A program made the position numbers and the translations under genes. From NCBI GenBank assembly GCA_036833715.1, contig DAITPG010000001.1:1-48427 (forward strand): DNA of 48,427 nt, read 5' to 3'. Every line of letters begins with the position of its first letter. Positions within the stretch are counted from its first letter, which is position 1. Below the pieces are notes generated by a model, which searched no databases, had not been told where the DNA came from, and was given only the letters and a program-made list of their open reading frames with translations. Source of the stretch: Eubacteriaceae bacterium (GTDB lineage Bacteria > Bacillota > Clostridia > Eubacteriales > Anaerofustaceae). This document shows positions 1,579 through 45,759 of the stretch, piece by piece.

Positions 1579-1579
1579 A

Positions 1580-2266: not shown

Positions 2267-2268
2267 GC

Positions 2269-3126: not shown

Positions 3127-3286
3127 ATAAAATGATTACCTCCGCTATTGTGCTATGATTTTAATTTTTCTGTGTGAACTGTCTGTGAACTTGTCCATCT
3201 TTAATGAGGCTTTAATAATTGCCGTAAGATCGGTTTATTTGGGCAAATCTTCCTTATAAAAATAATAGCACACCTTTATCGGTTTC

Positions 3287-4069: not shown

Positions 4070-4092
4070 TTCTCTATTCTCCTTTTACTGAT

Positions 4093-7794: not shown

Positions 7795-8025
7795 ATGAAA
7801 TCAAAAATCAAAAAATTCATTGCCCCTGTTGTGATCACGATCGTTATGGTGCTTTATTTTATCGGTTATGCCGCGGCCTGCATGGTCTTTAAGCAAATGC
7901 CGATTATGGTTAAAGTGGCAGGGATATTGATTCCCCTTGGTTTAGCCGGAGTATGTGTTTTTGTGCTCTTGGAAAGAATAAAAGAAATAAGGAGCGGAGA
8001 AGAAGATGATCTTAGTCAATACTGA
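7795..8025 (+). CDS. Small two-TM membrane protein
   Basis: Start trimmed to ATG 7795 (MKSKIKKF...), which has AAAGGG upstream. Overlaps the ybjQ-family gene by 20 nt, suggesting coupling. Confidence 0.5.
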   Translation: MKSKIKKFIAPVVITIVMVLYFIGYAAACMVFKQMPIMVKVAGILIPLGLAGVCVFVLLERIKEIRSGEEDDLSQY

Positions 8026-8317
8026 TTACATCCCGGGCAAGGAATTTGAAATGCTGGGGCTTGTCAAAGGCAGCACCATTCAATCCAAAAACATCGGCCG
8101 CGATATAACACAGGCGTTTAAAACACTTGTAGGCGGAGAACTGAAGGCTTATACCGAAATGATGAACGATGCCAGAGCGCTCGCAACCAAGCGAATGGTA
8201 GCCGAAGCGGAAACCCTTCATGCGGATGCTGTCATCAATATCCGATATGCGTCATCATCGGTCATGCAGGGCGCAGCCGAAGTCATGGCGTACGGCACCG
8301 CCGTAAAATTCAAATAA
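8006..8317 (+). CDS. ybjQ: YbjQ family protein (UPF0145)
   Basis: 103 aa. GKEFEMLGLVKGS...FKTLVGGELKAYTEMM...AVINIRY is the typical YbjQ signature. Confidence 0.85.
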   Translation: MILVNTDYIPGKEFEMLGLVKGSTIQSKNIGRDITQAFKTLVGGELKAYTEMMNDARALATKRMVAEAETLHADAVINIRYASSSVMQGAAEVMAYGTAVKFK

Positions 8318-8341
8318 AACTCGTAATGATTTAATCAAATA

Positions 8342-8378
8342 AAAGACTTAAGCAAAATACATTTGTTTAAGTCTTTTT
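8342..8378 (+). terminator. Intrinsic terminator after ybjQ
   Basis: 10-bp stem AAAGACTTAA / TTAAGTCTTT followed by a T run. Confidence 0.6.
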
Positions 8379-8566
8379 AAATATTCCTATTAGCAGCAAT
8401 TGAAATGTTTCACGAGAAACGACTATCTAGAGCTTCGGTTTCATATTCAGGCGATTTACACGATGATAGGTATTTTGGGGGCGGAGCCGAGTCCGATTAG
8501 CCGGATGTTCATTTCTTAAGGTCATGTTCGGTGATCGATACAAACAACAGTCGGTAGTAAGAAAAA

Positions 8567-9199
8567 TCAAAGATTTTTGTCCGAGAATTCGCACAGTTCT
8601 TTCAACGGGCATTCGCCGCACAGCGGCTTTCTTGCTTTGCAGATGCGTCTGCCGTGCCATATCAGCCAGTGATGGGCCGATGACCATAATTCTTTATTTA
8701 TGATTTGCTGCAGCATCTGTTCCGTTTTAACGACATCCGCCGAATGAGCAAGGCCGATACGGTTGGACACACGCTGGACATGCGTGTCCACGGCAATTGC
8801 GCTGACCCCGAAAGCGTTTGCCAAAACGACATTGGCCGTTTTTCTGCCCACACCGGGCAATTCCACCAGCTCTTCAAAAGTTTGCGGCACTTGTCCTTTG
8901 TACTTTTCAGCAATAATATCGCTTGCTGCAATGATATTTTTTGCTTTTGAAGGGGACAGCCCGCACGGGCGGATGATTTCTTTCAGCTTTTCTTCGCCCA
9001 TTCTGAGTATGCTTTGGGGATCGCCGGCGAGGGTAAACAGCTCATCGGTTACGATATTGACGCGCACATCAGTGCATTGGGCGGACAAAATCGTTGCGAT
9101 CAAAAGTTCGTAAGGCGATCCGAAATCGAGTCCGCAGCCCAGATCCTTATATATCTCACCCAAAATGAAAATGATCTTATCGGCTTTGCGTTTATCCAT
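8567..9199 (-). CDS. nth: Endonuclease III
   Basis: 210 aa. HhH-GPD motif (LVELPGVGRKTANVVL), catalytic VDTHV, and a C-terminal 4Fe-4S CX6CX2CX5C (CKARKPLCGECPLKELC). Confidence 0.92.
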   Translation of the reverse strand: MDKRKADKIIFILGEIYKDLGCGLDFGSPYELLIATILSAQCTDVRVNIVTDELFTLAGDPQSILRMGEEKLKEIIRPCGLSPSKAKNIIAASDIIAEKYKGQVPQTFEELVELPGVGRKTANVVLANAFGVSAIAVDTHVQRVSNRIGLAHSADVVKTEQMLQQIINKELWSSAHHWLIWHGRRICKARKPLCGECPLKELCEFSDKNL

Positions 9200-21655: not shown

Positions 21656-23335
21656 CTAGAATAATCCGCTGATTTTGCCGTTGTTGTCAACGTCGATCTT
21701 TTCAGCCGAGGGAACTTTCGGTAAGCCGGGCATTTTCATGATCGCGCCTGTAACCGCAACAATGAATCCTGCACCTGCGCTGAGTGTGATTTCTCTGATC
21801 GTAACTCTGAAGCCGGTCGGTCTGCCGAGTTTTGTCTGGTCGTCCGTGAGGGAATATTGTGTTTTAGCCATGCAGATCGGCAGGTTGCCGTATCCGAGTT
21901 TTTCAAGGTTTGCGATTTCTTTAGCAGCCGCAGCGGAGAAGTCTACGCCGTCAGCGCCATAGATTTTTGTAGCGATCGCGGTGATCTTGTCTTTGATCGG
22001 AGCGTCGAGCTCATAAGCGTAGCTGATTGTGGACGGCTGTTCGCAAAGTCTTACAACTTCTTCAGCCAGTTCTCTTCCGCCTTCGCCGCCGTTAGCCCAT
22101 ACGTCGGAAATCTTAACGTTAACGCCGAGTTCCGCGCATTTCGATTCAACCAAAGCAACTTCAGCCGCAGTGTCGAATGCGAATTTGTTGAGAGCCACCA
22201 CTGCCGGAAGTCCGAATACTTTCGTGATATTTTCAACGTGTTTGAGAAGGTTCGGAAGTCCTTTTTCAAGTGCTTCGAGGTTTTCGGTCGTAAGTTCCGC
22301 TTTCGGTACTCCGCCGTTGTATTTGAGAGCTTTGATCGTTGCAACGATGATAACCGCATCCGGTTTCAACCCTGCAAGTCTGCATTTGATGTCGATGAAT
22401 TTTTCAGCACCGAGGTCAGCGCCGAAGCCGGCTTCCGTTACTACGTAATCGGCAAAGTGCATTGCCATTTTGGTAGCGGTTACGGAGTTGCAGCCGTGAG
22501 CGATGTTAGCGAACGGTCCGCCGTGGATAAATGCCGGCGTTCCTTCGAGTGTCTGAACGAGGTTCGGTTTTAAAGCGTCTTTGAGCAATGCGGCCATAGC
22601 GCCCTGAGCATTGATCTGTCCTGCTGTTACAGGTTCGCCTTTTCTTGTATAAGCGACAACGATTCTTGCGAATCTTGCTTTAAGGTCATCAATGGAGTTA
22701 GCAAGGCAGAAAATTGCCATAACTTCGCTTGCAACGGTGATATCGAAACCGTCTTCTCTCGGCATGCCTTCGCTTTTTCCGCCGAGACCGTCGATGATTT
22801 TTCTGAGCTGTCTGTCGTTCATGTCAACCGCACGTCTCCATACGATTCTTCTGGGGTCGATGTCAAGATCATTGCCCTGATAGATGTGGTTGTCGATCAT
22901 TGCTGCGAGCAGGTTGTTTGCCGCGCCGATCGCATGGAAGTCGCCCGTGAAGTGAAGATTGATATCTTCCATCGGTACTACCTGTGCATAGCCGCCGCCA
23001 GCAGCGCCGCCTTTGACGCCGAATACGGGTCCGAGGGAAGGTTCTCTGAGAGCAACGATAACGTTTTTGCCGATTTTTGCAAGTCCGTCGCAAACACCGA
23101 CGGTCGTCGTTGTTTTGCCTTCGCCCGCAGGTGTCGGATTGATCGCGGTTGTGAGGATCAATTTAGCTTTGTTGCCTGAACCCGGCGTCGTATTCAAAAG
23201 ATTGTAGTCAACTTTTGCTTTATACTTGCCGTATAATTCAAGATCATCCTCTGTTAAATTGAGTCTTTTTGCGACCTCTCTGATATCAAGCGGCGTCGCT
23301 TCCTGAGCGATCTCAATGTCTGATTTAAAACCCAT
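21656..23335 (-). CDS. fhs: Formate-tetrahydrofolate ligase
   Basis: 559 aa. [15 protein letters not shown]-loop and the [15 protein letters not shown] motif. Confidence 0.97.
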
Positions 23336-23365
23336 TACAATACCTCCAAATATTTGTAGTGTTTT

Positions 23366-24154
23366 TTATTTTTTTTGAAGCTTATATCGTGCGATTACAT
23401 TACACAGGATAAAGCACACAAACGTAAAGATTGGGATAACCACGATCGATTTTAAAAATCTCATGGGCAGCATTGCAAAAACAGCCATGCTGTAAAGCTG
23501 GGATAGAAATATGCTATTCAACACAAGACTGCAAACGATTTCCACACTGGTCACCGCGAACAAAATCTTGTCGACGGGTATATCGGTATCTTTGGTTTCT
23601 TTCTTTCGCAGGAACCAGATGATCGCGCCCAAGTACAAAGCGAATACCGCTAATAGGATCGCAAAGATATACCAGGGCATGGCTGCATCCTTCAAATAAA
23701 TCACCTTGTCCTTGATGGACACGACGTTATTCGCATTCAGCAGATAGATCATACCTCCCACGAGGACTACAAAATTGATAATGTTGAGAATGTAAAATTT
23801 GAATTCTTTGTTTTTTCTGGTCAGCCAAAAGATCAGGCCGGGGATAAATCCGGTCAGCGCGCTTGTCAGTGTAAAGCCGAAGAAGTACGGACCTGCCGGT
23901 TTGATGATGAAGTTGAGGATGTCGGAAATGGCGCCGACAGCCAGTCCCCAAATGGGACCCAGAAATATGCCGGACAGCATAATGGGCACCGAGGTGAAGT
24001 TAAATCTGAGCTGCGGCATGAAATAAATTTCAAATGCCATTTTCAGCACTAGACTTAATGCAACAAAAAGCGATGCCAGCACCAATCGGTTAACATATAG
24101 GCGTCCTCCTCCTATAGATTTGGTGTTGTTTGGTTTGGTAGCATTACTGGTCAT
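23366..24154 (-). CDS. folT: ECF transporter S component, folate-family (FolT-like)
   Basis: About 262 aa with 6-7 TM segments. Start set to ATG 24154 (MTSNATK). Immediately preceded by a THF riboswitch. Confidence 0.7.
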   Translation of the reverse strand: MTSNATKPNNTKSIGGGRLYVNRLVLASLFVALSLVLKMAFEIYFMPQLRFNFTSVPIMLSGIFLGPIWGLAVGAISDILNFIIKPAGPYFFGFTLTSALTGFIPGLIFWLTRKNKEFKFYILNIINFVVLVGGMIYLLNANNVVSIKDKVIYLKDAAMPWYIFAILLAVFALYLGAIIWFLRKKETKDTDIPVDKILFAVTSVEIVCSLVLNSIFLSQLYSMAVFAMLPMRFLKSIVVIPIFTFVCFILCNVIARYKLQKK

Positions 24155-24204
24155 AAACTTCCTTTCTGTAACGCTCCCGCAGGCAAGAAACAAAGTCTAA
24201 TGCC

Positions 24205-24305
24205 GAACCAGCGGAAGCGGCAAGGCACCGCAGCCGATCACTCGGCCTTCGTTCATAAGCTACATCCCATCTTATGATACTTAACGCGCCTTACCTACTC
24301 TGTTT
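24205..24305 (-). promoter_or_regulatory. THF (folT-motif) riboswitch
   Basis: The minus-strand RNA GAGUAGGUAAGGCGCGUUAAGUAUCAUAAGAUGGGAUGUAGCUUAUGAACGAAGGCCGAGUGAUCGGCUGCGGUGCCUUGCCGCUUCCGCU shares blocks with the THF-I aptamer as I recall it. The shared blocks are GAGUAG, CGCGUUAAGU, AUGGGAUGU, AACGAAG, GCGGUG and CCGCU. Confidence 0.8.
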
Positions 24306-24347
24306 TATTATTTAATTGTAGTCAAGTGTTGAATACAATAGATGTCG

Positions 24348-25157
24348 TTATTTTTTGATCGGTCCGATTTTTCCCTTTCTGTAAGCCATGTTATATTTTC
24401 TGCCGCTCTTGTCGATGCCCGAAAGCGCTTCGGCGGCATAAATCATTCCCATCATGTCTCTGTCAAGCGGATCCATAATCGCGGAATCGAGTCCCGCGCG
24501 AATGGCCATCGTCATGCAGCCCTGATTGATAATCTTTCTTACAGGCATTTCGAATGAGATATTGCTGATCGCGCCCGTGATCTTCACAGTGGGGGCGTAT
24601 TCTTTGATCTTGATAATGCATTGTTCAAAGTTTTTCATCGCATCCGGAGCCGTGGCAAGCGCCATAACAGCCGGGTCGATATGGATTCTATGCGGTTCCA
24701 CGCCATATTTGGCGCCTTTGTCGATGATGCTTTTTGCGATATCGACTTTCGTCTGCACGTCCATGGGAATGCCGTGTTCTTTATCACAGGTGAGTCCGAT
24801 GACTTCCCAGGTATTGCCCGTCATCAGCGGGAAGATCGTTTCGCATTTGGTGCCTTCTTCATTGATGGAATTGAACATGCCCGGCACTTTTGCCAGCGTG
24901 TAGATTTCTGCGAGAAGGTTTTCGTTGGGGCTGTCAATGGCAAGCGGCGTATCCGTGACTTCCTGTACGATATTGATAAGCCATGTAAGAACTTCTTTTT
25001 CTCTTTCCGCGTCTACGCTTGCGCAGACATCGATAAAACTGGCGCCCGCTTCGGCCTGAGCCAAGGCTCTTTTCTGAATAAATTCAACGTCTCTTTCTTC
25101 GATCGCTTTTTTAACGACGGGAATGGTTCCGTTGATTTTTTCACCGATGATGATCAT
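24348..25157 (-). CDS. Pterin-binding methyltransferase (methyl-THF:corrinoid or methylcorrinoid:THF type, MT2/MtrH-AcsE-like)
   Basis: 269 aa. IIGEKINGT...AGASFIDV...AIDSP is the pterin-binding (DHPS-like) barrel signature of corrinoid-dependent methyl-THF methyltransferases. Confidence 0.8.
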   Translation of the reverse strand: MIIIGEKINGTIPVVKKAIEERDVEFIQKRALAQAEAGASFIDVCASVDAEREKEVLTWLINIVQEVTDTPLAIDSPNENLLAEIYTLAKVPGMFNSINEEGTKCETIFPLMTGNTWEVIGLTCDKEHGIPMDVQTKVDIAKSIIDKGAKYGVEPHRIHIDPAVMALATAPDAMKNFEQCIIKIKEYAPTVKITGAISNISFEMPVRKIINQGCMTMAIRAGLDSAIMDPLDRDMMGMIYAAEALSGIDKSGRKYNMAYRKGKIGPIKK

Positions 25158-25494
25158 CTGTTATTCCTCCATGTTGTGCTGATTTCCAATATCATATAGA
25201 CCGTATAAATATTCGTAGCTATTATACTATAAATCATTCAGTTTTCGAAAGCATTTTTTTAGATATTTTACATATTTAAATAAATCGCTGTGCTGATATC
25301 ACCAATAATTAAAATGCTTACAAATTAAGTTTACTCAAGTCTTTACTTTTCTATTGATTAGCTTTATAATTAAATTGTAATTTTTTTAAGGAAAACAATA
25401 TCATTTCGAAAAATTGCATACGATTACAGAACGAGTAAATTGTACCATTAACTCAATTCAATTTCAAGCTTTTTTAATAAAACGGGAGGAAAAA

Positions 25495-27285
25495 ATGCAA
25501 AAGATCAAAGTAGATTTTACATTTGATGGTAAATCGATCGAGGTCGAAAAAGGTATGCTGTTATCAAAGATTTTGGAACAGGCAGGCTATCCGCAGGACC
25601 TTGTTTGCGGAGGAAACGGTAAATGCGGCAAATGTGTTACCGAAATTATCAGTGAAGGAAAAGAACAGTCCGTTTTGTCCTGTCAGACGGAAGTGGAAAA
25701 TGATATAACCGTCACCGAAATCCATAGCTTGGTCAACAGAAAGATCAATGTTCTTACCTCAACGCAATTTGAAACAAAAATCAATCCGTTCCTGCAAAAA
25801 CTGCCGGTGAGAGCCGAAACGATCAAGGCCGACCACTGCACAGGATTTGCGGAAAAAATAACCGAAAAATACAAATTGTCCGAATTCGGATATGATGCTT
25901 TGAAATCGCTTTCAGTGAACGCCAGCGTTTATAAACCCGATACCATGCTGAATCTGATTATATTCAAAAATGAAGTCATCGATATTCGCGCCGATGACAA
26001 AGGCGATATTTACGGGCTGGCCATCGACATCGGCTCTACGACCGTGGCGGCCTTTTTATATGACATGACGACGATGGAGCATATCCATACATATTCGTCT
26101 CTGAATGAACAGACCGCGCTGGGCGCCGATGTCATCAGCAGGATCGGATATTGCATCAAGGAAGAAAACGGCACACAAGTCATGCAGCAAATGATCGCCG
26201 GCACCATCAATAAACTCATCGATCAGGCCAAAGCGGACGGAGTGGACCCCGACCGTATCTATCATGTGGTATTATGCGGCAATTCTACCATGCAGCACTT
26301 GTTTTTGGGTCTTTATCCGGCGGCTCTCGGCAAGGCGCCTTTTGCCAGCACCACGAGAGATTTTGTAGAGATCAAAGGTTCCGAAAGCCTTCTTAAAATC
26401 AATCCCAACGGAAGGATCACCTTCCTGCCGCTTCTTGGCGGTTTTGTGGGAGCGGATACCACGGCCGTGCTCATCGGCGTCGAGGATGACGACAAGCCCC
26501 GTCTGATCATCGACCTTGGCACCAACGGCGAGATTGCGGTCGGCACAGACGAGAAGTACCTTGTGGCGTCCACTGCCTGCGGGCCCGCGCTTGAAGGCGC
26601 CGGACTTTCCTGCGGCATGCGCGCCGCCGACGGAGCCATCCAGCATTTTGTGATCGACGAAAACAAAAATGTTGTTCTTGATGTGATCGGTAACACCAAG
26701 CCCATCGGCATCTGCGGCTCGGGCATCATCGACATTTTAGCGGAGCTTTTGCGTGTGGGCGTTCTCAACAAACGCGGAAAAATGCTCAATAAAGAAGAAT
26801 ATACCGCCAAATACGGCGCAGATATATTATCCGAACGTATTTATAAGCTCGAAGACCAAACCGTGTTTCTTCTCGCTTCCGCAGCCGAAAGCGGTACCGG
26901 CGACGATGTTTATTTCGGACAGAAGGATTCCCGTTATGTGCAGCTTGCCAAAGCGGCCATTGCGACCGGATGCGAAATATTGGTGCAGAATTACGGACTG
27001 CCCAGAGAACACCTGCACGAGATCTGCCTTGCGGGCGCGTTCGGCAACTACCTGGATGTTCACAACGCTCAGTTTATCGGCCTTTTGCCCAAATATGAAG
27101 GCGTTCCCGTACGCTCCATCGGCAACGGCGCCGGCACGGGCGTACAGATGTATCTGCTCGATCAGGGCATTCACAAAAAGTGCAAAAAAGTGCAAAAAAA
27201 TTCCGAACACACCGAGCTCAACTTTGAAGAAAGCTTCAAGGAAACCTACTTCGATGAAATGACGTTTAAAAACGGCGTTATGTAA
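25495..27285 (+). CDS. Corrinoid activation/regeneration protein (RACo/RamA/AcsV-like; 2Fe-2S ferredoxin plus ASKHA ATPase)
   Basis: N-terminal plant-type 2Fe-2S CGGNGKCGKC...C, then ASKHA motifs (AIDIGSTTV, IDLGTNGE, GICGSG). Start trimmed to ATG 25495, which has a GGGAGG SD. Confidence 0.82.
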   Translation: MQKIKVDFTFDGKSIEVEKGMLLSKILEQAGYPQDLVCGGNGKCGKCVTEIISEGKEQSVLSCQTEVENDITVTEIHSLVNRKINVLTSTQFETKINPFLQKLPVRAETIKADHCTGFAEKITEKYKLSEFGYDALKSLSVNASVYKPDTMLNLIIFKNEVIDIRADDKGDIYGLAIDIGSTTVAAFLYDMTTMEHIHTYSSLNEQTALGADVISRIGYCIKEENGTQVMQQMIAGTINKLIDQAKADGVDPDRIYHVVLCGNSTMQHLFLGLYPAALGKAPFASTTRDFVEIKGSESLLKINPNGRITFLPLLGGFVGADTTAVLIGVEDDDKPRLIIDLGTNGEIAVGTDEKYLVASTACGPALEGAGLSCGMRAADGAIQHFVIDENKNVVLDVIGNTKPIGICGSGIIDILAELLRVGVLNKRGKMLNKEEYTAKYGADILSERIYKLEDQTVFLLASAAESGTGDDVYFGQKDSRYVQLAKAAIATGCEILVQNYGLPREHLHEICLAGAFGNYLDVHNAQFIGLLPKYEGVPVRSIGNGAGTGVQMYLLDQGIHKKCKKVQKNSEHTELNFEESFKETYFDEMTFKNGVM

Positions 27286-29268: not shown

Positions 29269-29350
29269 AAAATCCAAAAAAAATGTGACGCAAATCCAAT
29301 ACTATTCGTCTTGAAGATTGAAAGCAATGTGGGCAGAAAGGGTTTTATGC

Positions 29351-29893
29351 ATGGATGATGAACAGATCATGGATTTATTTTGGCAGCGCAGCGAACAGGC
29401 CATCAGTGAAATGAAAGCGAAATATCAAGCCCTGCTGTTTCGTCTGGCTCAAAATATCGTTTCGCTGCCTGAAAACGCGGAGGAATGTATTAATGACGCC
29501 TATCTTAAATTATGGAATACGATACCTCCCGAAAGACCGATGTCCTTAAAAAACTATGCTTCACGCATCGTGCGCAATTTGGCTATCGATCTATACCGAA
29601 AATCGGCTTCGCCGAAAACCGAGATCGTCGGCATTTGCGAAGAGCTTGAAGATATTTTAAAAGACGGCAAAAACGATTATGAGGCAGCCGAACTGAAGGA
29701 ACTGATCAACTCTTTTTTAGCAACACTCGACCGAGATGCGCGCATTTTATTTGTGCGGCGGTACTGGATGTCCCAGACCATAGAAGAATTATCAAAAAAT
29801 ACGGGGCTAAAACAAAGCACCGTTAAAATGCGGCTTCTGCGCACCAGAGAAAAATTCAGGGATTATCTGAAGATAGGAGGGATCACCGTATGA
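29351..29893 (+). CDS. ECF-type sigma-70 family RNA polymerase sigma factor
   Basis: Region 2 (INDAYLKLWN) and region 4 HTH (IEELSKNTGLKQSTVKMRLLRTREKF). The stop overlaps the next gene (ATGA). Confidence 0.85.
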   Translation: MDDEQIMDLFWQRSEQAISEMKAKYQALLFRLAQNIVSLPENAEECINDAYLKLWNTIPPERPMSLKNYASRIVRNLAIDLYRKSASPKTEIVGICEELEDILKDGKNDYEAAELKELINSFLATLDRDARILFVRRYWMSQTIEELSKNTGLKQSTVKMRLLRTREKFRDYLKIGGITV

Positions 29894-31242
29894 AAGGCTT
29901 GGATTTTTATCAGGCAATGAATTTGATCGATAACCGCTTTATCGACGAAGCGCTTGCGGAGCAAAATGATAAAACCGTTCGAAGGACAGATTTTTTGCCA
30001 ATCAAACATTTTTTGGCGGCTGCCGCTTTGTTTTTATTGGTTTTCACAGCGGTGATCAACCTGTTTCCCAAGACCGCCTACGCCGTAAGCAAAATTCCGC
30101 TCATCGGAGATTTGGCTAAGATCGTTACTTTTGACCCAAGCATGCGCGCCTGCTTAAAAAATAATTACGCGCAATACGTGGGAGAAACCCAAACAATCAA
30201 AGGCATCCGATCCGAAGTCTGCTTTATGGTGGTGGACGCCAATTCGATATCCGTTTTTTTTAAGTCCGATTTGCCACACATCCCGAATGCTGACGGCAAT
30301 ATGATTTTTCATGCAGATATCAGCAATGCGGACGGAAGCATCATCCCCAGTTGCGGCGGTATCAATGAAACCCGGATCAATAACTTTTATGAATTTCGCA
30401 TGGATCTTCAGGATGATACGCCGATTCCCGAAGTCATCACACTTCATCTTACCTACTATTCGCGCGCGGCGGAAGGCGAGGCTTACACCATCAACGAGGG
30501 AAAAGCTGAATACACTCTTCATCCGGACAAAACCTATGCGCAGGTCGTGAAAAGCTACGATATCCATGTCACCAAAACCATCATGGGACAGAACGTGCAT
30601 TTCGACAGGTTAGATGTATACCCTACCAAATCGAAGCTATACGTTAGCACCGATGAAGCCAATACAGCCTTGTTAAAAAATATTGAAATCACCTTATATG
30701 ATGATAAGGGAAATGCGTATGAAGCGAAGCAAAACGGTTTGACCGCGCTGACAGAAGACTTACAAATACTGGCTAAACTCTATGAAAGCCCGTATTTTTC
30801 ACAAACCAAAACCATAACGGCCATAGTCAGCGGCGTTGCTTTTATGGATAAATCCAAGGTGTACGGCGCGGTAGATTACGCGAACAAGTCGATCAGTAAT
30901 CTGCCTGCTGATGTCAGCGTGGCATCCATGATTTTGGACGATCAAAACACTTTGGAGATCGCCTTGAAGGTCTATCGGCCGAATGGCAAGGGCTTTCAGC
31001 AAATGGCCGGCAATTACAAAGATGTTAACGGCAACGAGTATTATTTTGACCATATTGATTTTATGCTTTCCTACTGGTCCACGTATTTGAACCGTGAGAT
31101 TGCCAAAGAGAGCGAAGGGTACAGCTATCAGGTGATTTCGATACCCGCTTACGAAGACGGGAAATATCAAATCATTTGGAATTACGCGCCAACAGAACCG
31201 CTGGCCGACCCGATCGAAATTACGATCCATAACGGAAATTAA
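29890..31242 (+). CDS. Putative anti-sigma factor, single-pass membrane protein with a large extracytoplasmic domain
   Basis: 450 aa. Translationally coupled to the sigma gene. One TM segment at about residues 40-60, DUF4179-like layout. Confidence 0.55.
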   Translation: MKGLDFYQAMNLIDNRFIDEALAEQNDKTVRRTDFLPIKHFLAAAALFLLVFTAVINLFPKTAYAVSKIPLIGDLAKIVTFDPSMRACLKNNYAQYVGETQTIKGIRSEVCFMVVDANSISVFFKSDLPHIPNADGNMIFHADISNADGSIIPSCGGINETRINNFYEFRMDLQDDTPIPEVITLHLTYYSRAAEGEAYTINEGKAEYTLHPDKTYAQVVKSYDIHVTKTIMGQNVHFDRLDVYPTKSKLYVSTDEANTALLKNIEITLYDDKGNAYEAKQNGLTALTEDLQILAKLYESPYFSQTKTITAIVSGVAFMDKSKVYGAVDYANKSISNLPADVSVASMILDDQNTLEIALKVYRPNGKGFQQMAGNYKDVNGNEYYFDHIDFMLSYWSTYLNREIAKESEGYSYQVISIPAYEDGKYQIIWNYAPTEPLADPIEITIHNGN

Positions 31243-38434: not shown

Positions 38435-38511
<77 letters not shown>

Positions 38512-38523
38512 TTTTATCGCATC

Positions 38524-38551
38524 ATAAGCCGATTTTACGGCTTATTTTTTT
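38524..38551 (+). terminator. Intrinsic terminator after the tRNA
   Basis: ATAAGCCG-ATTTTA-CGGCTTAT hairpin followed by T7. Confidence 0.7.
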
Positions 38552-38605: not shown

Positions 38606-38845
38606 TTAATATTTACCCTCAACAAACCAGCGAGGATCTTCGAACCACAAATACGTTTTCTTCCCATTGACCATAATGGTATATCTTAATCCTATTCCAC
38701 CTGCGTCAATGCTGGCAGCACGCATGCTTTCAATGACCTTATCGATTTCAAAGATGCGGCCATCCTCCCATATGATTTTAAGTGGAGTAACGCTTCCATC
38801 TTCATTGAATTTAACATCTACACCGACAAATACTTTTCTTTTCAA
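38606..38845 (-). CDS. Small hypothetical protein (79 aa, TTG start)
   Basis: ORF only, with no convincing SD. The sequence PLKIIWEDGRIFEIDKVIESMRAASIDAGGIGLRYT...WFVE resembles a small conserved family seen in Clostridia mobile elements, by recollection only. Confidence 0.4.
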   Translation of the reverse strand: MKRKVFVGVDVKFNEDGSVTPLKIIWEDGRIFEIDKVIESMRAASIDAGGIGLRYTIMVNGKKTYLWFEDPRWFVEGKY

Positions 38846-38876: not shown

Positions 38877-39407
38877 TTATTTATATAAATTAACTAAAAG
38901 TGTTTCTAATCCATTAGAAACTTTTGTTACATAGTTTAAGAGTTCTTGGGTAGAATTTTTCAGGTGGTCAATTTCTGAAATATGATTACTTATTGAATCC
39001 CAATATGAGTCAAATTCTTCACTTATGTATTTGATTTGATCTGAAATGAAAAATTCTTTTTCATATATTTTTAATAAAGATATTCTGTTTTTGATTGATC
39101 TTTGTGTAATTCGAATATGATTTACATCATCCTCACTTTCGATAATATACATTTTTGAATCAGATACCGAAAGAATAATTTTATCTATTATTTTTTCCAG
39201 AATCGCCTTTTTGCGTATAGTATCATTTTTATTTTGTGTTAAAAAATATGCAAAAATTAATGCAATAAGTATATTTATTCCAGCATAAAGTGGGATTGTA
39301 AAATAGTCAGCTAATAATTTATTACCATTAGATTGAAAAGCGGAATAAATCAGTAATCCGATTGGAATCAATACTGTTAGATAAATCCATTTAAATTTAG
39401 GTTTCAT
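38877..39407 (-). CDS. Two-TM membrane protein with a helical cytoplasmic tail (third gene of the accessory cassette)
   Basis: 176 aa. Hydrophobic helices at about residues 7-24 and 37-57, then a charged Ile/Lys/Glu-rich helical region. Starts 12 nt after the stop of the STAS-like gene. Confidence 0.6.
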   Translation of the reverse strand: MKPKFKWIYLTVLIPIGLLIYSAFQSNGNKLLADYFTIPLYAGINILIALIFAYFLTQNKNDTIRKKAILEKIIDKIILSVSDSKMYIIESEDDVNHIRITQRSIKNRISLLKIYEKEFFISDQIKYISEEFDSYWDSISNHISEIDHLKNSTQELLNYVTKVSNGLETLLVNLYK

Positions 39408-39419
39408 AACTACTCCCTA

Positions 39420-39734
39420 CTACGCTTTCTTAACGCATTTTTCGATAAATTCTAATAAACTTGGTTCATCGTTAGATATAATAATCATATTATCTAGAAT
39501 ATTTTTATCTTTTAATTCACGTGCGAGTCCCCCGAAGCTTTCTTCAATAAAAGATGAAGGATATCCAAAACACCCATCTAAGTCGATTTTTAGCTTTTCA
39601 TGTTTTGTCAAAGCTTCTTGATATTTAGGCAATAAGTAATTTATCCTAAACTCTTCGCCAGAAAAAGGACCTTCATTAATCAATCTTCCACCAGGAAAGG
39701 CTGTAAAATCTTTTGCAATATTAATCTCAATCAT
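39420..39734 (-). CDS. STAS-like protein (DUF4325-type anti-sigma-antagonist fold)
   Basis: 104 aa. KLKIDLDGCFGYPSSFIEESFGGL matches my recollection of the DUF4325/STAS signature (..DF.gV...sSSF.dE.fg.L). The ATG overlaps the upstream gene by 8 nt. Confidence 0.7.
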   Translation of the reverse strand: MIEINIAKDFTAFPGGRLINEGPFSGEEFRINYLLPKYQEALTKHEKLKIDLDGCFGYPSSFIEESFGGLARELKDKNILDNMIIISNDEPSLLEFIEKCVKKA

Positions 39735-40830
39735 TTTCTTTTTCTCTCTCTTTCAGCATATACCAGCAAAATAGTGTCCCGAATATTTTATTTCTATAAT
39801 CTTTCAAATAAAAGTTTTCACTATTATCTATAAGCTTACAAATCCCCTTACCGGAAAAAACAATTAAATTTTTTAATAATCCATACTTGAAACATTCTAA
39901 TATTTGAGGTAAACCTTTTCCTCTATATTTTACACCAGTTTCCGTACGATCATCACCGTTTAAGGCAGATTTAATAAATTCAGAATCGTTTTTAAGAAAT
40001 ATCGGGATTTTTTCACCAAACCTTTTTCTTACTGTTGTTGGAATGCCTAGACCAGTATCCAAAAATATAAATTTAACCATTTCTTTAGTTTCTTCCGCAT
40101 AAATCAACCAAGAATTTGTAGTCATTATATTTTTACTGGAATATGCGTGTTGCTTTGTATTTTCCATTAGTTCAACAAGGATATTATATAATGGGATTGT
40201 GTCTTTTCTCTTAAATCCACATTTATTTTGTACAAATTCGCAAACCTGCGCGGCGATAGGTGAATCCACTGTTTCACCTTTAGCGATTTTTATTCGATTA
40301 GTTAATGGTTTGATGTTAAGGTTATCTTTTGAGTGAACAAACGACAAGAAGCCTGATTCGATATATACAGATTTTGCGCTTTCCTCATTTGGCAAATTGC
40401 CTTCAAACATATATCTAAAAACTTTATGGCTTTTAGTATCTGCAACAATTGAAACTAGGTATAAAATTGCATCGACAGTAACTTCAGTTACTGCACTGGA
40501 ATCGATATAAAATCTATGCCCGATTTTATATTCGTCTCTTTTTGTTATTATTTGATTGTAGAACTCAATAGTTTCATCCGGGTTATTCTCAATAGAAAAA
40601 TTTGATGGTGCGCGAAAAATGGAGCGATTCCTAATTTTTATTATAGCTTGAGAATTTTTATGTTTTTTAGTTTTCTTCTCTTTATTTTTGTTATTTTGTA
40701 GCTTACGACTTCTTTCGTCAAGCCATAATTTGCGCTCAAGTTTCCTTTGGATAAAATCACCCCTAAAACCAAATTTGACAAATATTATTAATAAATAACG
40801 ATAGCATATTATTAAAATTTTGTCAAACAT
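39727..40830 (-). CDS. GHKL (Bergerat-fold) ATPase or serine-kinase-like protein, SpoIIAB/RsbW-type
   Basis: 367 aa. N-box VELMENTKQHAY (nt 40141-40173, verified by back-translation), G1 FLDTGLGIP, G2 YRGKGLPQI. AAAGGAG SD 5 nt before the ATG at 40830. Confidence 0.75.
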   Translation of the reverse strand: MFDKILIICYRYLLIIFVKFGFRGDFIQRKLERKLWLDERSRKLQNNKNKEKKTKKHKNSQAIIKIRNRSIFRAPSNFSIENNPDETIEFYNQIITKRDEYKIGHRFYIDSSAVTEVTVDAILYLVSIVADTKSHKVFRYMFEGNLPNEESAKSVYIESGFLSFVHSKDNLNIKPLTNRIKIAKGETVDSPIAAQVCEFVQNKCGFKRKDTIPLYNILVELMENTKQHAYSSKNIMTTNSWLIYAEETKEMVKFIFLDTGLGIPTTVRKRFGEKIPIFLKNDSEFIKSALNGDDRTETGVKYRGKGLPQILECFKYGLLKNLIVFSGKGICKLIDNSENFYLKDYRNKIFGTLFCWYMLKEREKEND

Positions 40831-40902
40831 TGCAACTCCTTTTATAATCTAAGAATCAATATAAATGTTTAAATATATGAACGATAAGCAGTTCTTATTA
40901 AT

Positions 40903-40933
40903 AAAAAAAGACGGGGCTTAACCGCCCCGTCTT
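40903..40933 (-). terminator. Canonical intrinsic terminator after the phage holin
   Basis: The minus strand reads AAGACGGGGC-GGTTAA-GCCCCGTCTT followed by TTTTTAT, 12 nt after the holin stop codon. Confidence 0.75.
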
Positions 40934-40950
40934 CGTCATTATTAAAGTAA

Positions 40951-41391
40951 TTACCTTTGTTCGATATTGTTTTTGCTTCTCAATACCTCAATAGCTTTCT
41001 TGATCGCGCCGGGCAGCGGTACGCCCATAAGGCCGATATTTTCGATAATGCTGATTGCCTCATTGGCGATAAACGCGATGATCACGCTTGTCCGTATATA
41101 ATCAGCGCCCACGGCTATATCAAGCCTGTAGGCAACCAAGACAGCCAGCAGGATGCCGCATTTGCGGCATAGACCCTTTAATCCTGCTCTGGATTCCAAA
41201 GCTCCGCCGCAGCTCTTCGGGCTCTTCTTAAATACCCCCGCGAGGATCAATCCGGTTGCATAGTCAATGGCCATAAAAATCAGTAACGTTTGCAAGTCTG
41301 TTGTCCAACCCCCGAATAACCACGCGAGGAATCCGCCGATCGCGCCGAGGATGCCCAAAAGCGTTATTTTATTTACTGCGATCTGTTCCAA
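40951..41391 (-). CDS. Phage holin (toxin-secretion/phage-lysis holin family)
   Basis: 146 aa, about 4 TM segments. LLIFMAIDYATGLILAG is characteristic of the TIGR01593-type holin family. Confidence 0.8.
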   Translation of the reverse strand: MEQIAVNKITLLGILGAIGGFLAWLFGGWTTDLQTLLIFMAIDYATGLILAGVFKKSPKSCGGALESRAGLKGLCRKCGILLAVLVAYRLDIAVGADYIRTSVIIAFIANEAISIIENIGLMGVPLPGAIKKAIEVLRSKNNIEQR

Positions 41392-41402
41392 AGGCTTACC
41401 TC

Positions 41403-42275
41403 TTAAGCGTACAAAAATTCGTATTTCGTGATCGTAACGTCACCAATTTCTTGACCGGGATAAACATGGAGCCATTTCAGCGGGTCGACGCAATATTCTC
41501 GTCTTTCGGCATCGGTATCGTTATATTCCTGCCCCATCGGCGTGATGGCAATCCGGCAATGCAAATGCGGACCGTTAGAATCGCCGGTACTGCCCATAAG
41601 GCCAATTTTGCTTTTCATTCCGAGCGGATCGCCAACCTTGCAGTCCTGACGCGAAAGATGTTCATACATGATGTGCAGAGATTTTTTGTTTAAATGATCA
41701 TCGATGCGCTGCTGTACATATTTGCCGCGAATACGATCTTCCGTGACCTTTGTTATGACACCTTGGCCGACCGAAAGAATAGGCATATTCGGATCAGACC
41801 AATAGGCGAAATCTGTTCCGGTATGATCATCTTCATCAAAAGGCTCACTAATGGCGATGTAATCCACCGGCATTCTCAGTTTAAGCGGTTCAGGCTTGGG
41901 GGCGTCCGGATCGGTCACAGGTGCCGGCGCGCTTCCTGCGGCCGGGATCGTCAATTTCTGTCCGGCATAGACTAAATCGGGATCATCGCCGATTACGCCT
42001 TTGTTGGACGCATAGATATCCTTCCAAGTAACACCTTTGTATTTGGTGGCAATCTTCGTAAGATTATCGCCTTCCTGTACGGTATAAATATTACCCGCGG
42101 GCGCGTCCTCTTTGAACGTGCCGGGAATCATGACCGGATGGCCGACATCAAGCTTTCTTGCTTGGTCATATGAAATGTTGTTAAGATGCATAAGATCATC
42201 TAAATCGACATTATAGTCATCCGCGACATCGGTCAGCGTCTGGCCTTCTTTTAACTTGTGTATAGTGTATCCCAT
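41403..42275 (-). CDS. Endolysin: two LysM domains plus an M23 peptidase
   Basis: LysM-like YTIHKLKEGQTLTDVADDY...MIPG and YTVQEGDNLTKIATKY...LTIP. M23 motifs HTGTDFA and GSTGDSNGPHLH. Confidence 0.88.
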   Translation of the reverse strand: MGYTIHKLKEGQTLTDVADDYNVDLDDLMHLNNISYDQARKLDVGHPVMIPGTFKEDAPAGNIYTVQEGDNLTKIATKYKGVTWKDIYASNKGVIGDDPDLVYAGQKLTIPAAGSAPAPVTDPDAPKPEPLKLRMPVDYIAISEPFDEDDHTGTDFAYWSDPNMPILSVGQGVITKVTEDRIRGKYVQQRIDDHLNKKSLHIMYEHLSRQDCKVGDPLGMKSKIGLMGSTGDSNGPHLHCRIAITPMGQEYNDTDAERREYCVDPLKWLHVYPGQEIGDVTITKYEFLYA

Positions 42276-42709
42276 TATTCTTGTCCTCCGTTATTTGTAA
42301 TTTGTTTGGTTTCGGCAGCTGCCTCGTCCGTGATCTCATCGAAAGGCTCTTCGATGCTTTTTATGTATTTATTGTATGATTGGACCGTCTGTCCCCAAAA
42401 ACCGCCACTTCCCTCAAGCTTCTTATATAAGCCGGTCGATCCAAGATACAAAAATACAGCAAGCCATGCTGTGGCGAGCCAACTCAATGTGCTCATTGCA
42501 AAAGTCGCCTTAAAGCCAATAGCAAAAATGCAACTGAGGAAAAAACAGATGATCGAAATAAACCAGGTGTTTTCCTTACAGAATTTGAAAGCTTTCAGCC
42601 ATGCTTTCGTTGCTTCCGTCATGTACATGACGATTGCGCTTAAAATAGCGGCCAATAAAAAAAGCTGCATAAACAGCCCGACCTCGATTGAATAATTAAA
42701 ATCAATCAT
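42275..42709 (-). CDS. Three-TM phage membrane protein (holin-like)
   Basis: 144 aa, three hydrophobic helices and an acidic C-terminal tail. The stop overlaps the endolysin ATG (TAATG). Confidence 0.5.
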   Translation of the reverse strand: MIDFNYSIEVGLFMQLFLLAAILSAIVMYMTEATKAWLKAFKFCKENTWFISIICFFLSCIFAIGFKATFAMSTLSWLATAWLAVFLYLGSTGLYKKLEGSGGFWGQTVQSYNKYIKSIEEPFDEITDEAAAETKQITNNGGQE

Positions 42710-43134: not shown

Positions 43135-45759
43135 CTATACCGCTTTATGAATTATTCCTGAAAGACTGACATATGCATTATTGCCAGAAACGACAACTAC
43201 ATTGCCTGCGCTTGAAACTTGCATGTATGCGGCCGCGCCAGATGACCATCCAACAAATGCTTCTATTTTAGCTGGCCTATATCCAGATGCCTCAGTGAAA
43301 ATTGGAGTGCTGGCACCAATAGTTCCGTTCCTTACAAGTCCACGAAGATGAACAAAGCCTAATTCGTCTCGCATATAAGCTGCAGTTTCGAAGCTTCCGC
43401 CATAATTTTCCCATCCATTAAGCAATGTCGGTTCGATCCATGCTGTAGGCGGCGCAAGTATTCTTGTCCATGGAACAGTCCATGCATTGCCTGATCCAGA
43501 TTGCCTAATCCATATGCCGCTATAGAGACCGCTTCCAAATCTCCATGCTCTCTGAATAACGAAATCTGTGCTGTTATTATATCCGCCTAGAATTTCCACA
43601 TAATGTGCAGTGGATCCATCAGATAATCCGTCAATGGCCTCCATCACATAATAAAGACCCGGCGTAAGAGTGAAGTTTTCTAACTGGGCAGCTGTTACTT
43701 GTTTAGCTACGAATAGCTCTCGGCCGTAAACGTCATAATAGCCATCGCGACTTTGCACGCCTTTTTTGACGGTCGACATCATGCCAACGCCTAAATACGG
43801 TGACGGCGCGAGACCTGAAGGAAAATCGACACCCCAATCCATAAGCGGATCACCGATAAGCAATACGCTTACTTGATATGTCGTTAAGCGATCCCTTATC
43901 GTGACGCGAATGTTGTAGTTTTTTCCGGTATCAAATCCAAGGGATCCATTAGTATGGCCGGATATAGCTTTATCGATAATGCTTAGATTTCCTGATCCAT
44001 CGACCGACTTTGAAAGCGCGGTCGCGCCGGTTAACCATGTACCCGATGAAGTCAACTTATACTCGTAATAAAGCTCCTGTATAGAATTTGGTATACTACC
44101 GAAATTCAATAGATGCACTTTTGCGTTAATTGATAATGAAGTTTCAGCGTCAACCATGTTTGCGCGAGCGGCGACCACTTTCGATATGGAAATAGGAGTC
44201 AATACTTTATAATTCGCTGAAGATATTGTTTTCGATACGCTTACCGTGAATCCGCGGCTATCCGTAACAAGAATGGTTATTACGTTTCCATCAACATTAA
44301 GCAAATTAATGATCGTCGTTCCAGCGGTTACTGTGGACGTTTTTGTTCCGCAAGTTACTTTGTACGATACAATCGTTGCGCTGTTTTTTCCTGATGCCGG
44401 AGTGTTTATTGTAATGCGGATATCGGAATAATCTTTTATGATTATTTGATTGTTTTGAGTCAATGCAAATATCGCAGAATCAACATCAGCATAACTAAAA
44501 TTCGCCGCTGAAAAAGTTGGATCGCTGCTGCCTGCAGCGACGGTCGCAATTGCAGTTTTTGTGAGCGAAGGACCCAGTTGAGTCGATCCCGACATAACCT
44601 TAAGTGTCGCAGTAACGGTGACGGTTTTTAACGAGGGTATGGCGGCATATAGCAAGGTTGGATCAAGGGTAACCGCTTTATTCCCGGCTATAATGCCGGT
44701 CAATTCGCCGACGACCGTACCGCTCGGCACTTTGAAAGTGATAACTATTCCTAACCCTTGAGGGTTTGTTACGCTTACCGAAGTGCCCGAGCCTATAAAA
44801 AAGGCAAGAAACGAATCGAAAGACGCATTTAGGGTAGCTGTAGTTGAAGCTGTTTGAGTACTACCAAGTTTTGTCGAACCCGACCATGTTGTCATTTCTA
44901 CGCTTATTCCAAACGATGAAACATTTGCGTTTGATAAAGCCTGATACATTGTTGCAGGGCTTATTGTCGTGGTTACCTTGCCATTATATGTACTTTGAAT
45001 CGTCTTTACGGTTACGCCGTTAACCTTAAAGATTAACTTGACACTTACTCCATTAGGATTATTTACGTTGACAATTGTATCTTCGCCAATATTAAACCCC
45101 GGAAAACTCGTGATCGATTTCGTTAATGTAGCTGTAGCCGAAGCGGTGTCTGTACTTCCGATTTGAGTTGACCCCGACCATGTTGATAACTCAACCGCCA
45201 CCGGAACAGTGTTTAGCGCAGGGTTGGCAGCGGCACCGTAGAGTGTTGCAGGGCTAATCGTCGTATCGACAGCGCCGCTATATATGCCCGAAATTGTTTT
45301 GACTATAATACTATTCGTCTTGAAAACTAATTTCGTCGTAAGTCCGCCTGGATTACTTATATTTACCCTCACGTTCCCATTAACTGCGAACCCCGGAAAA
45401 CTCGTGATCGATGCGGCACGCGGAATATCTGTCAAATCTTCTGAGTCGCTCCAAGTTACGGTATAGTCACCGTTTCCGGCAAAGGTAGCGGAACAATTAA
45501 CAGTCTTTGAACCATCTGTATTATGTGTTACAGTTTTACTTTTCGTTATAAGCAGCTGTGAACCGGAAGATGATTGTCCCGTGTTGAAGTTTGCTGTAAA
45601 TGGATATTCGGTTCCATCTATTATTATTTTTCCGGATGGATTATCGTTCGCCCATGTACCCGCGTTCCAGTTTGCATACAATTTTACCGTAACATACGAG
45701 GTATTATTCGGTATATTTACATTGCTTTCTGTAATTTCGCCTGTTAACCATACTGACAT
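43135..45759 (-). CDS. Phage tail fibre or receptor-binding protein (DUF859-like N-terminus, triple repeat, C-terminal RBP-like domain)
   Basis: 874 aa, Ser/Thr/Gly/Asn-rich beta-type sequence, located after the Tal-like gene. The C-terminal motif LLNGWENYGG...AAYMRDELGFVHLRGLV is common in fibre tips. Confidence 0.75.
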   Translation of the reverse strand: MSVWLTGEITESNVNIPNNTSYVTVKLYANWNAGTWANDNPSGKIIIDGTEYPFTANFNTGQSSSGSQLLITKSKTVTHNTDGSKTVNCSATFAGNGDYTVTWSDSEDLTDIPRAASITSFPGFAVNGNVRVNISNPGGLTTKLVFKTNSIIVKTISGIYSGAVDTTISPATLYGAAANPALNTVPVAVELSTWSGSTQIGSTDTASATATLTKSITSFPGFNIGEDTIVNVNNPNGVSVKLIFKVNGVTVKTIQSTYNGKVTTTISPATMYQALSNANVSSFGISVEMTTWSGSTKLGSTQTASTTATLNASFDSFLAFFIGSGTSVSVTNPQGLGIVITFKVPSGTVVGELTGIIAGNKAVTLDPTLLYAAIPSLKTVTVTATLKVMSGSTQLGPSLTKTAIATVAAGSSDPTFSAANFSYADVDSAIFALTQNNQIIIKDYSDIRITINTPASGKNSATIVSYKVTCGTKTSTVTAGTTIINLLNVDGNVITILVTDSRGFTVSVSKTISSANYKVLTPISISKVVAARANMVDAETSLSINAKVHLLNFGSIPNSIQELYYEYKLTSSGTWLTGATALSKSVDGSGNLSIIDKAISGHTNGSLGFDTGKNYNIRVTIRDRLTTYQVSVLLIGDPLMDWGVDFPSGLAPSPYLGVGMMSTVKKGVQSRDGYYDVYGRELFVAKQVTAAQLENFTLTPGLYYVMEAIDGLSDGSTAHYVEILGGYNNSTDFVIQRAWRFGSGLYSGIWIRQSGSGNAWTVPWTRILAPPTAWIEPTLLNGWENYGGSFETAAYMRDELGFVHLRGLVRNGTIGASTPIFTEASGYRPAKIEAFVGWSSGAAAYMQVSSAGNVVVVSGNNAYVSLSGIIHKAV
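44527..45408 (-). repeat. Three tandem 98-aa (294-nt) divergent repeats inside the tail fibre gene
   Basis: Residues 118-215, 216-313 and 314-411 each begin (I/F)(T/D)SF(P/L)(G/A)F. Each contains NP.G, (K/I)L(V/I)FK, TISPATLY-like, and WSGST(Q/K)(I/L)GS blocks. Confidence 0.7.

Follow-up and report, generated by a model that had tools for sequence, protein, structure and literature searches.

The 48,427 nt of contig DAITPG010000001.1 (Eubacteriaceae bacterium, assembly GCA_036833715.1) that were analysed here, and that are referred to as the window, include part of a prophage which carries a cassette of three genes, named A, B and C. Most likely, this cassette is an undescribed relative, with a membrane effector, of the kinase-STAS systems that were published in 2026; it is widespread and has a distinct kinase family. 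Gene A codes for a candidate serine kinase of the GHKL type, gene B for a small STAS-like protein with a DUF4325 domain, and gene C for a membrane protein. By analogy with VapKSC, one of the published systems, we consider it fairly probable that the cassette is a phosphorylation-gated abortive-infection or superinfection-exclusion system which follows the VapKSC logic with a membrane protein as its effector. A first-pass annotation, made from the letters of this DNA, had put three open reading frames (ORFs) on the minus strand, exactly where we find them, and had interpreted them as a partner switch. As a hypothesis, this interpretation is supported.

The published systems have been described by Chambers et al. 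(EMBO J 2026, PMC13373217). CapK is a kinase with helix-turn-helix (HTH), STAS and GHKL domains, and CapS is a repressor that joins STAS to a winged HTH (wHTH); they are transcriptional regulators of immune operons, among them CBASS, Bub, Thoeris and others. Single-stranded DNA (ssDNA) activates CapK, and S54 of CapS is the mapped phospho-site. In VapKSC, the kinase VapK (STAS-GHKL) phosphorylates the small STAS protein VapS, upon which the PIN toxin VapC is released; a phospho-mimic VapS likewise releases the toxin, and the system protects by about 2 logs against phage Bas42. By analogy, the partner-switch idea for the cassette has an experimental precedent in this related system (PMC13373217). 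The paper mentions neither DUF4325 nor a transmembrane effector, and we found no description of a membrane-effector form of kinase-STAS systems in the openly readable literature.

The first-pass annotation could match the trio to no named system. This agrees with PADLOC-DB v2.0.0 (2023), which gives no system, with a spurious low-complexity match for A and none for B. PHROGs lists the families of A (phrog_3364) and B (phrog_5816) as being of unknown function. With CapKS and VapKSC, however, described relatives do exist, and the cassette is therefore less new than had been implied.

Protein A, the kinase candidate

The Pfam search with A yields HATPase_c (PF02518) at 14.5 bits (E = 0.048), under the gathering cutoff of 26.4, and no match to HATPase_c_2 (PF13581), the family that the first-pass annotation had expected. 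A search of the A profile against PDB chains returned no GHKL protein and one low-complexity match only. Because the Pfam match is under threshold, the GHKL assignment rests on the motifs and on a confident structural model which matches SpoIIAB. The N-box, G1 and G2 motifs that had been read from the translation lie on invariant columns of a 43-member alignment of the family, in which E220, N224, D258, G260, G306, L307, G351 and T352 do not vary. The AlphaFold model of A has a mean predicted local distance difference test score (pLDDT) of 87 and a predicted template-modelling score of 0.79. When this model was compared to PDB structures with Foldseek, SpoIIAB was the best match (E = 2e-5, template-modelling score 0.70 normalised to target), and the next fold matches were RsbW, UsfX and SiaB (6kko), ahead of topoisomerase VI-B, MutL and gyrase B. 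As the four anti-sigma-type proteins rank first, the ATP-binding domain of A is considered to be of the anti-sigma serine-kinase type, and the SpoIIAB/RsbW flavour noticed at first sight is confirmed at the level of the model.

Profile alignment links A to the published kinases. With hhalign, the A family aligns to CapK with 93.8% probability (E = 1.7e-7) over a stretch that takes in the last part of the N-domain, the linker and the GHKL domain, and to the GHKL domain of VapK with 79% probability (E = 1.6e-5); for these and the following comparisons, the CapK, VapK, CapS and VapS sequences were taken from the appendix of PMC13373217. The CapK alignment of the full-length A profile passes through the end of the CapK STAS domain. 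When scored against the A family hidden Markov model (HMM), CapK and VapK reach only 8-20 bits (13 for VapK), far below library-wide significance, and the approximately 4,800 clusters of A homologues (see below) are thus considered to be a separate kinase family.

Two N-terminal parts of A, a basic helix and an alpha/beta domain, are additions to what had been described before. About 20 of the first 70 residues are lysine or arginine, and this holds across the family; the helix is a candidate nucleic-acid-binding or sensor element. The alpha/beta domain may be STAS-like, judged by topology only. Here, chains of roughly 105 residues from RsbV-RsbW entries are matched by Foldseek over about 80 columns; RsbV and RsbW are not told apart in these matches. 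Phe78 is conserved after the first beta strand, as is W68 in CapK, a positional likeness which is not proof of equivalence. We also considered the first 20 residues as a membrane anchor and rejected this, since their hydrophobicity is not conserved in the family.

The viral fold library gave no annotated analogue. T4-type RIIA proteins occur there as weak GHKL-fold matches (Foldseek, E = 0.03-0.1), which probably reflects the common Bergerat fold. T4 RIIA is labelled 'protector from prophage-induced early lysis' and is an antagonist of lambda RexAB.

Protein B, the predicted kinase substrate

The reading of B as a STAS-like protein of the DUF4325 family (PF14213) is backed by Pfam, with 38 bits (E = 1.4e-9) against a gathering cutoff of 23. 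Its 104 residues consist solely of this domain, and Pfam finds no HTH. VapS belongs to the same Pfam family (E = 2.7e-17), and in a PIN survey of 2017 a VapC clade was coupled to DUF4325 genes. The PSSF...FGGL motif of B is conserved and contains Ser61, the predicted phospho-acceptor (Table 1), and the preceding Ser60, which is Ser or Thr in 35 of 47 sequences (74%) and aligns with Ser48 of VapS. The register of the phospho-site is ambiguous by this one residue. As a side observation, B matches only positions 340-437 of the 441-position phrog_5816 profile, which suggests that some phages have a larger protein with DUF4325 joined on at its C-terminal end, possibly a kinase-STAS fusion.

The evidence for A and B can also be read in another way: A might be a non-phosphorylating GHKL ATPase, like MORC, MutL or topoisomerase, and B a nucleotide- or partner-binding adaptor, with the output driven by an ATP-dependent conformational change. 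We consider this very unlikely. Topoisomerase VI-B, MutL and gyrase B do occur among the fold matches, Pfam sees generic HATPase_c only, and weakly, and the similarity of B to characterised phospho-substrates is weak. However, the best structural matches are all serine kinases of the anti-sigma type, the invariant Ser61 of B is found at the canonical phospho-acceptor position, and kinase activity has been demonstrated for CapK, of which A is a homologue.

Protein C, a membrane protein

C has two transmembrane (TM) helices near its N-terminus (about residues 8-26 and 40-58), as first annotated, and a helical tail, which is cytoplasmic, comprises four helices and carries no catalytic motif. A juxtamembrane motif, YFLTQNKNDTIRKK, is conserved in the family as YYLTQxxxDxRKxK. 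Two TM helices are found in 40 of 42 third-gene products and a single one in the other two. C has no family match in Pfam, NCBIfam, PADLOC or PHROGs; in particular, neither Pfam nor PHROGs assigns it to PIN or to a holin family. A word-indexed search with C alone returned only C itself, and its homologues were obtained through synteny and a family HMM.

Conservation and distribution of the cassette

Homologues of A were grouped into clusters at 50% identity. A word-indexed search yielded 86 clusters, nearly all of them unannotated, and an exhaustive HMMER search of 1.84 billion representatives yielded 4,766 clusters at E <= 1e-3 and 1,539 at E <= 1e-30. Of the 57 loci that we fetched, 30 come from viral contigs, 25 from genomes and 2 from an exact look-up, and the family HMMs were applied to all of them. 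A is found in all 57, and B is encoded directly downstream in 51. Five of the six loci without B end at the contig edge, and in the sixth (L032) A itself is truncated. In this viral contig, which groups with L002, A is cut at about 296 codons (7965-8852), B and C are missing, and a 492-aa ORF on the reverse strand follows; the cassette may have been disrupted by an insertion. We detected C homologues in about 40 loci; of the others with sequence at this position, nearly all encode a protein of 130-206 aa which has diverged and has TM helices at its N-terminus. Only in one locus (L054) was no C-like gene seen after B. The genes overlap or are separated by at most about 22 nt. The co-occurrence of the trio in other genomes is evident, and the trio is syntenic wherever the sequence allows.

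Taken over about 60 loci, the order A-B-C occurs in Bacillota, Bacteroidota, Synergistota, Fusobacteriota, Planctomycetota and Proteobacteria. The hosts include Clostridia, Oscillospiraceae, Lachnospiraceae, Paludibacteraceae, Synergistaceae, Fusobacteriaceae, Succiniclasticum and Pirellulales. Marinobacter phage AS1 (MK088078; L058, 3126-5504), which is temperate and has been cultured, carries the trio co-directionally and directly downstream of the CI repressor. AS1_41 matches the A profile at 99.4% (E = 5.9e-22), AS1_40 is a DUF4325 protein and AS1_39 has 159 aa and one hydrophobic helix; all three are annotated as hypothetical. For Francisella phage KIRK, likewise a cultured temperate phage of Proteobacteria, the gene table lists the same gene order adjoining the CI repressor, again as hypothetical genes (PMC7924643).

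When Pfam domains were counted in the two ORFs to either side of the cassette, functions of mobile elements prevailed: serine recombinases, integrases, small and large terminases, lysins, a holin, CI/S24 repressors, TnpV and transposases. Also present are DpnII restriction-modification, SIR2, Abi_alpha and RhuM. In phages, the cassette follows a holin and an amidase and precedes Abi_alpha (L002), lies between replication genes and an integrase plus terminase (L001), or is found before terminase genes and beside integrases, recombinases and CI. One copy is located inside an integrative and conjugative element (ICE; L063). Two non-phage loci are rich in restriction genes: in L059 (1-6812), the cassette comes directly after GmrSD, two D12 methyltransferases and an AlwI endonuclease, and in L061 (8001-16924) it precedes a HipA_C-like gene and a type III restriction-modification system. 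PADLOC models detect ThsB, HKD+Snf2/DrmD, MzaA (twice), a type II restriction-modification pair and several candidate families among the neighbours. The fetched loci place the cassette in prophage accessory slots, in an ICE and in restriction-rich islands.

This range of carriers raises the question whether the cassette is a kinase-controlled toxin-antitoxin or addiction module which stabilises a prophage, ICE or island and has no dedicated anti-phage function. Many kinds of mobile element, ICE included, carry it, its three genes with a small middle protein resemble a toxin-antitoxin layout, and the authors of the VapKSC study emphasise that stress response and immunity are not sharply separated (PMC13373217). 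We nevertheless regard such a module as unlikely. The cassette is repeatedly placed in phage accessory slots and beside restriction and Abi genes, VapKSC protects against phage (PMC13373217), and an integrated prophage has less need of an addiction module than a plasmid.

Likewise, the neighbourhoods bear on a classical anti-sigma partner switch that would control a sigma factor of host or phage. The SpoIIAB-like fold of A and its STAS-like partner are what such a switch would have, but Sigma70 domains occur in only 2 of 95 upstream neighbours of the related loci, and neither a sigma factor nor a PP2C phosphatase recurs among the neighbours. In the window, too, none is present in or next to the cassette, as had been noticed at first. 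Since, moreover, the conserved third gene codes for a membrane protein and A has extra N-terminal domains that are absent from SpoIIAB and RsbW, we give this possibility hardly any credence.

Operon layout and prophage setting

The layout and signals of the cassette are listed in Table 1. As first annotated, the three genes are co-directional, A and B overlap by 8 nt (39727-39734, ATGATTGA), and gene A has its own Shine-Dalgarno sequence; the spacer between B and C has 12 nt (39408-39419) and contains a GGGAG Shine-Dalgarno sequence. The three genes are regarded as translationally coupled. The G+C content (GC) of the cassette is 23-36%, whereas the adjacent holin gene has about 50% and the window as a whole about 45%; GC drops from about 50% to about 27% exactly at the terminator. 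Stop codons are frequent in DNA of such low GC, and all three ORFs still have homologues in the same order elsewhere, which argues against their being chance ORFs.

Because the terminator, at 40907-40934 within the stretch given in Table 1, is located between the stop codon of the holin gene and the cassette, the cassette is insulated from the late lysis transcript, and its own promoter is therefore presumably located in the AT-rich leader. Matches to promoters in this leader are weak (a sigma-70-like TTAATA-18-TATATT at 40901-40872), and promoter-like sites are no more numerous than in shuffled sequence. Most likely, the cassette is a self-contained accessory operon of the prophage which is expressed from its own leader.

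Table 1. Features of the A-B-C cassette and its flanks (positions in the window; aa, amino acids).
Feature	Position	Strand	Evidence
Gene A (K), 367 aa, candidate GHKL serine kinase, SpoIIAB-like; distant homologue of CapK/VapK; phrog_3364	39727..40830	-	motifs, model, profile alignment
A residues ~25-67, long, strongly basic helix with conserved K-x-x-W-x-D motif	40630..40758	-	model secondary structure
A residues ~68-188, alpha/beta domain (beta-alpha-beta-alpha-beta-alpha-alpha-beta) with motif IDxSxVxxVTVDAxMYLIA	40267..40629	-	model
A residues ~189-362, Bergerat-fold ATP-binding domain: N-box E220/N224, G1 D258-G262, G2 G304-P308, G3 G351-T352	39745..40266	-	alignment, Foldseek
Gene B (S), 104-aa DUF4325 STAS-like protein, predicted kinase substrate; phrog_5816	39420..39734	-	Pfam, PHROGs, synteny
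Ser61 codon of B, predicted phospho-acceptor	39552..39554	-	invariant (47/47 sequences); alignment with CapS Ser54
Gene C, 176-aa membrane protein, predicted effector	38877..39407	-	TM helices, family HMM, synteny
Shine-Dalgarno sequence AAAGGAG, 5 nt upstream of the gene A ATG	40836..40842	-	sequence read
AT-rich leader of ~60 nt, expected site of the cassette's own promoter	40843..40896	-	inferred
Intrinsic terminator (11-bp stem with 7 GC pairs, T-run), ends holin/late transcript	40897..40934	-	terminator scan and sequence read
Prophage lysis genes: holin Phage_holin_4_1 (40951-41391), LysM + M23 endolysin (41403-42275)	40951..42275	-	Pfam, PHROGs
tRNA-Arg(ACG), probable prophage attachment site, outside the system	38435..38511	+	own terminator at 38524-38545

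With the holin and endolysin genes on its right and tRNA-Arg on its left, the cassette is found in a slot that is classic for accessory genes, with the lysis genes on one side and the probable attachment site on the other, as had been proposed. Tail genes are found further to the right (PHROGs). Attachment-site repeats were not found, because the prophage extends past the right end of the contig. The direct contact with the lysis genes would also fit a regulator that serves the phage's own life cycle, be it a damage-sensing device which tunes the timing of lysis, with C as holin, antiholin or lysis modulator, or one which tunes induction. Such a role is suggested by the location directly after holin and endolysin genes in the window and in the L002 group, by the cI repressor genes adjoining the cassette in AS1 and KIRK, by the response of CapK-type kinases to DNA damage (PMC13373217), and by the size and the two TM helices of C, which it has in common with many holins. 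A strong terminator and a GC discontinuity, however, separate the cassette from the lysis operon, and neither Pfam nor PHROGs matches C to a holin family. Within phage genomes the cassette is not tied to one place (it is found before the terminase, beside the integrase or beside cI), and outside phages it is present in an ICE and in chromosomal restriction islands. This variety of places, the terminator that insulates the cassette and its copies in non-phage DNA speak against a dedicated role in lysis by the phage, and we consider a life-cycle regulator to be improbable, if slightly less so than the non-phosphorylating ATPase. All four alternatives discussed here are less well supported than a VapKSC-like switch with a membrane effector.

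The downstream neighbours of the cassette differ between loci; in the window, a 79-aa ORF (38606-38845, minus strand) is followed by the tRNA. This ORF has a TTG start about 31 nt past the stop codon of C, with no terminator in between, and no match in Pfam or PHROGs. It was considered as a fourth component and was rejected because it does not co-occur with the trio: its only homologue in the fetched loci is found 5 kb upstream of the cassette in L024. On the other side, a gene for a hydrophobic protein of 144 aa (42275-42709, minus strand; no match in Pfam or PHROGs) abuts the endolysin gene upstream and could code for a second holin or a lysis accessory protein. The gene for an 874-aa tail protein contains, at 44829-45412, direct repeats that are 294 nt apart (63 nt with 76% and 24 nt with 100% identity), a spacing that points to a repeated module of 98 aa.

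To the left of tRNA-Arg are ordinary chromosomal genes of an anaerobic Firmicute, which code for formate-tetrahydrofolate (THF) ligase, RACo, UvdE, lipoate ligase and a CwlD-type amidase. The presence of formate-THF ligase and of the corrinoid activator RACo (21656-27285) suggests that the host is one of the acetogen-type Clostridia. A putative pair of extracytoplasmic function (ECF) sigma factor and DUF4179 anti-sigma factor at 29318-31242 is unrelated to the cassette.

Proposed mechanism

The gene architecture, the fold, the motifs, the synteny and the contexts in mobile elements and defence islands were observed in this analysis. From these and from the analogy with VapKSC we infer a kinase activity of A on B, an interaction of B with C, toxicity of C, a trigger and an anti-phage phenotype, which would be connected as follows. 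In the uninfected lysogen, B would keep C inactive by binding to its cytoplasmic helical tail, in analogy to VapS and VapC. A cue that arises from infection or stress would switch on the kinase A. This cue might be a nucleic acid, to which the basic N-terminal helix would bind together with the groove that separates the two domains of A. With ATP, A would then phosphorylate B on Ser61, or on the adjacent Ser60, as conservation and homology indicate. Phosphorylated B would release C, which may oligomerise in the membrane and make membrane integrity or potential collapse. The incoming phage would be stopped at the cost of the cell, or infection would be blocked at the envelope. As the cassette encodes no phosphatase, the switch may well be one-way and suicidal.

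Expression in lysogens would fit the location of the cassette, which is downstream of cI in AS1 and KIRK and, in the window, behind a terminator after the lysis genes. In this, the cassette would resemble lambda rexAB.

Several points weigh against this mechanism. A is under the HATPase_c gathering threshold of Pfam, and tests for a STAS domain in its N-terminal part were negative or weak (hmmsearch against PDB, hhalign to the N-domains of CapK and VapK and to the B family). Compared directly, B resembles VapS and CapS only weakly (hhalign, 7.5% and 2.2%; PDB-wide E = 0.46), and the link of B to them therefore rests on common Pfam membership. C has no recognisable toxin domain, its all-helical model is poor (pLDDT 50), and it could be a sensor or anchor rather than the executioner. 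Most neighbours of the cassette are generic mobile-element genes. Finally, the positions of the A family which align to the ssDNA-contact lysines K237 and K239 of CapK are not basic. As these lysines are not conserved, the trigger of CapK is not transferable to A, and the cassette kinase probably responds to a different one.

More tentatively, the cassette may stand for a whole phospho-switch immunity family of phages and mobile elements, with about 1,500-4,800 clusters. Its SpoIIAB-like kinase would sense a cue other than ssDNA through the family-specific basic N-terminal helix, and phosphorylated DUF4325 protein would directly open a two-TM, pore-forming executioner. In this way, partner switching would control membrane integrity. 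The family would be a functional counterpart of RexAB in the same prophage slots, beside cI or the lysis genes. We put this forward as a possibility, in which we have distinctly less confidence than in the VapKSC-like switch as such.

If the VapKSC-like switch is confirmed, the kinase-STAS pair known from CapKS and VapKSC would prove to be a general modular core, to which a membrane effector can be connected as well as a repressor or an RNase. The families phrog_3364 and phrog_5816 would obtain a function, and with them thousands of trios that are now without annotation in Bacillota of gut and rumen and in other phyla. This would also be a new prophage-encoded exclusion mechanism for Gram-positive anaerobes, in which few defence systems have been tested. 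With about 2 kb, the system is small and readily testable.

Comparison with known systems

The anti-sigma switches SpoIIAB-SpoIIAA, RsbW-RsbV and UsfX-RsfB provide the best structural matches for the ATP-binding domain of A, and they share with the cassette a STAS-type substrate with a serine at the start of helix 2. Unlike in these switches, the cassette has no adjacent sigma factor or PP2C phosphatase, its output is a membrane protein, and A is twice the size of the anti-sigma kinases and has extra domains. SiaB of the SiaB-SiaC pair from Pseudomonas aeruginosa is also among the fold matches of A (6kko). The SiaABCD pathway illustrates that a kinase of the SiaB type is able to gate an output protein which is not a sigma factor. 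There, SiaC is of the DUF1987 type, the output is a diguanylate cyclase, and the phosphatase SiaA makes the switch reversible.

Lambda RexAB is a functional analogue only, which is carried by a prophage, as the cassette is; in some phages (AS1), the cassette is also located beside cI. RexAB consists of a cytoplasmic sensor and a small multi-pass membrane protein that is thought to depolarise the cell. There is no relationship in sequence or fold, and Rex has no kinase or STAS component.

CapK-CapS has in common with the cassette that a GHKL serine kinase is paired with a STAS substrate, and CapK is the best remote match of A. CapK has an HTH domain where A has the basic helix, and CapS carries a wHTH and is a repressor, whereas B has no DNA-binding domain. 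There is also no downstream immune operon in the cassette, the sole conserved partner being the membrane protein.

VapKSC is similar in its gene order (kinase, small STAS protein, effector), in a kinase with an N-terminal alpha/beta domain followed by a GHKL domain, in a DUF4325 middle protein with a conserved serine in the same loop, and in its occurrence near defence genes. The cassette differs from it in its third gene, which codes for a helical protein with two TM helices while VapC is a PIN nuclease, in the extra basic N-terminal helix of A, and in B, which lacks the C-terminal inhibitory helix region of VapS. The cassette family is, in addition, mostly phage-borne and common in Bacillota. 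The cassette is thus a logical extension of VapKSC rather than a surprise, and still one that is abundant, unannotated and carried by phages.

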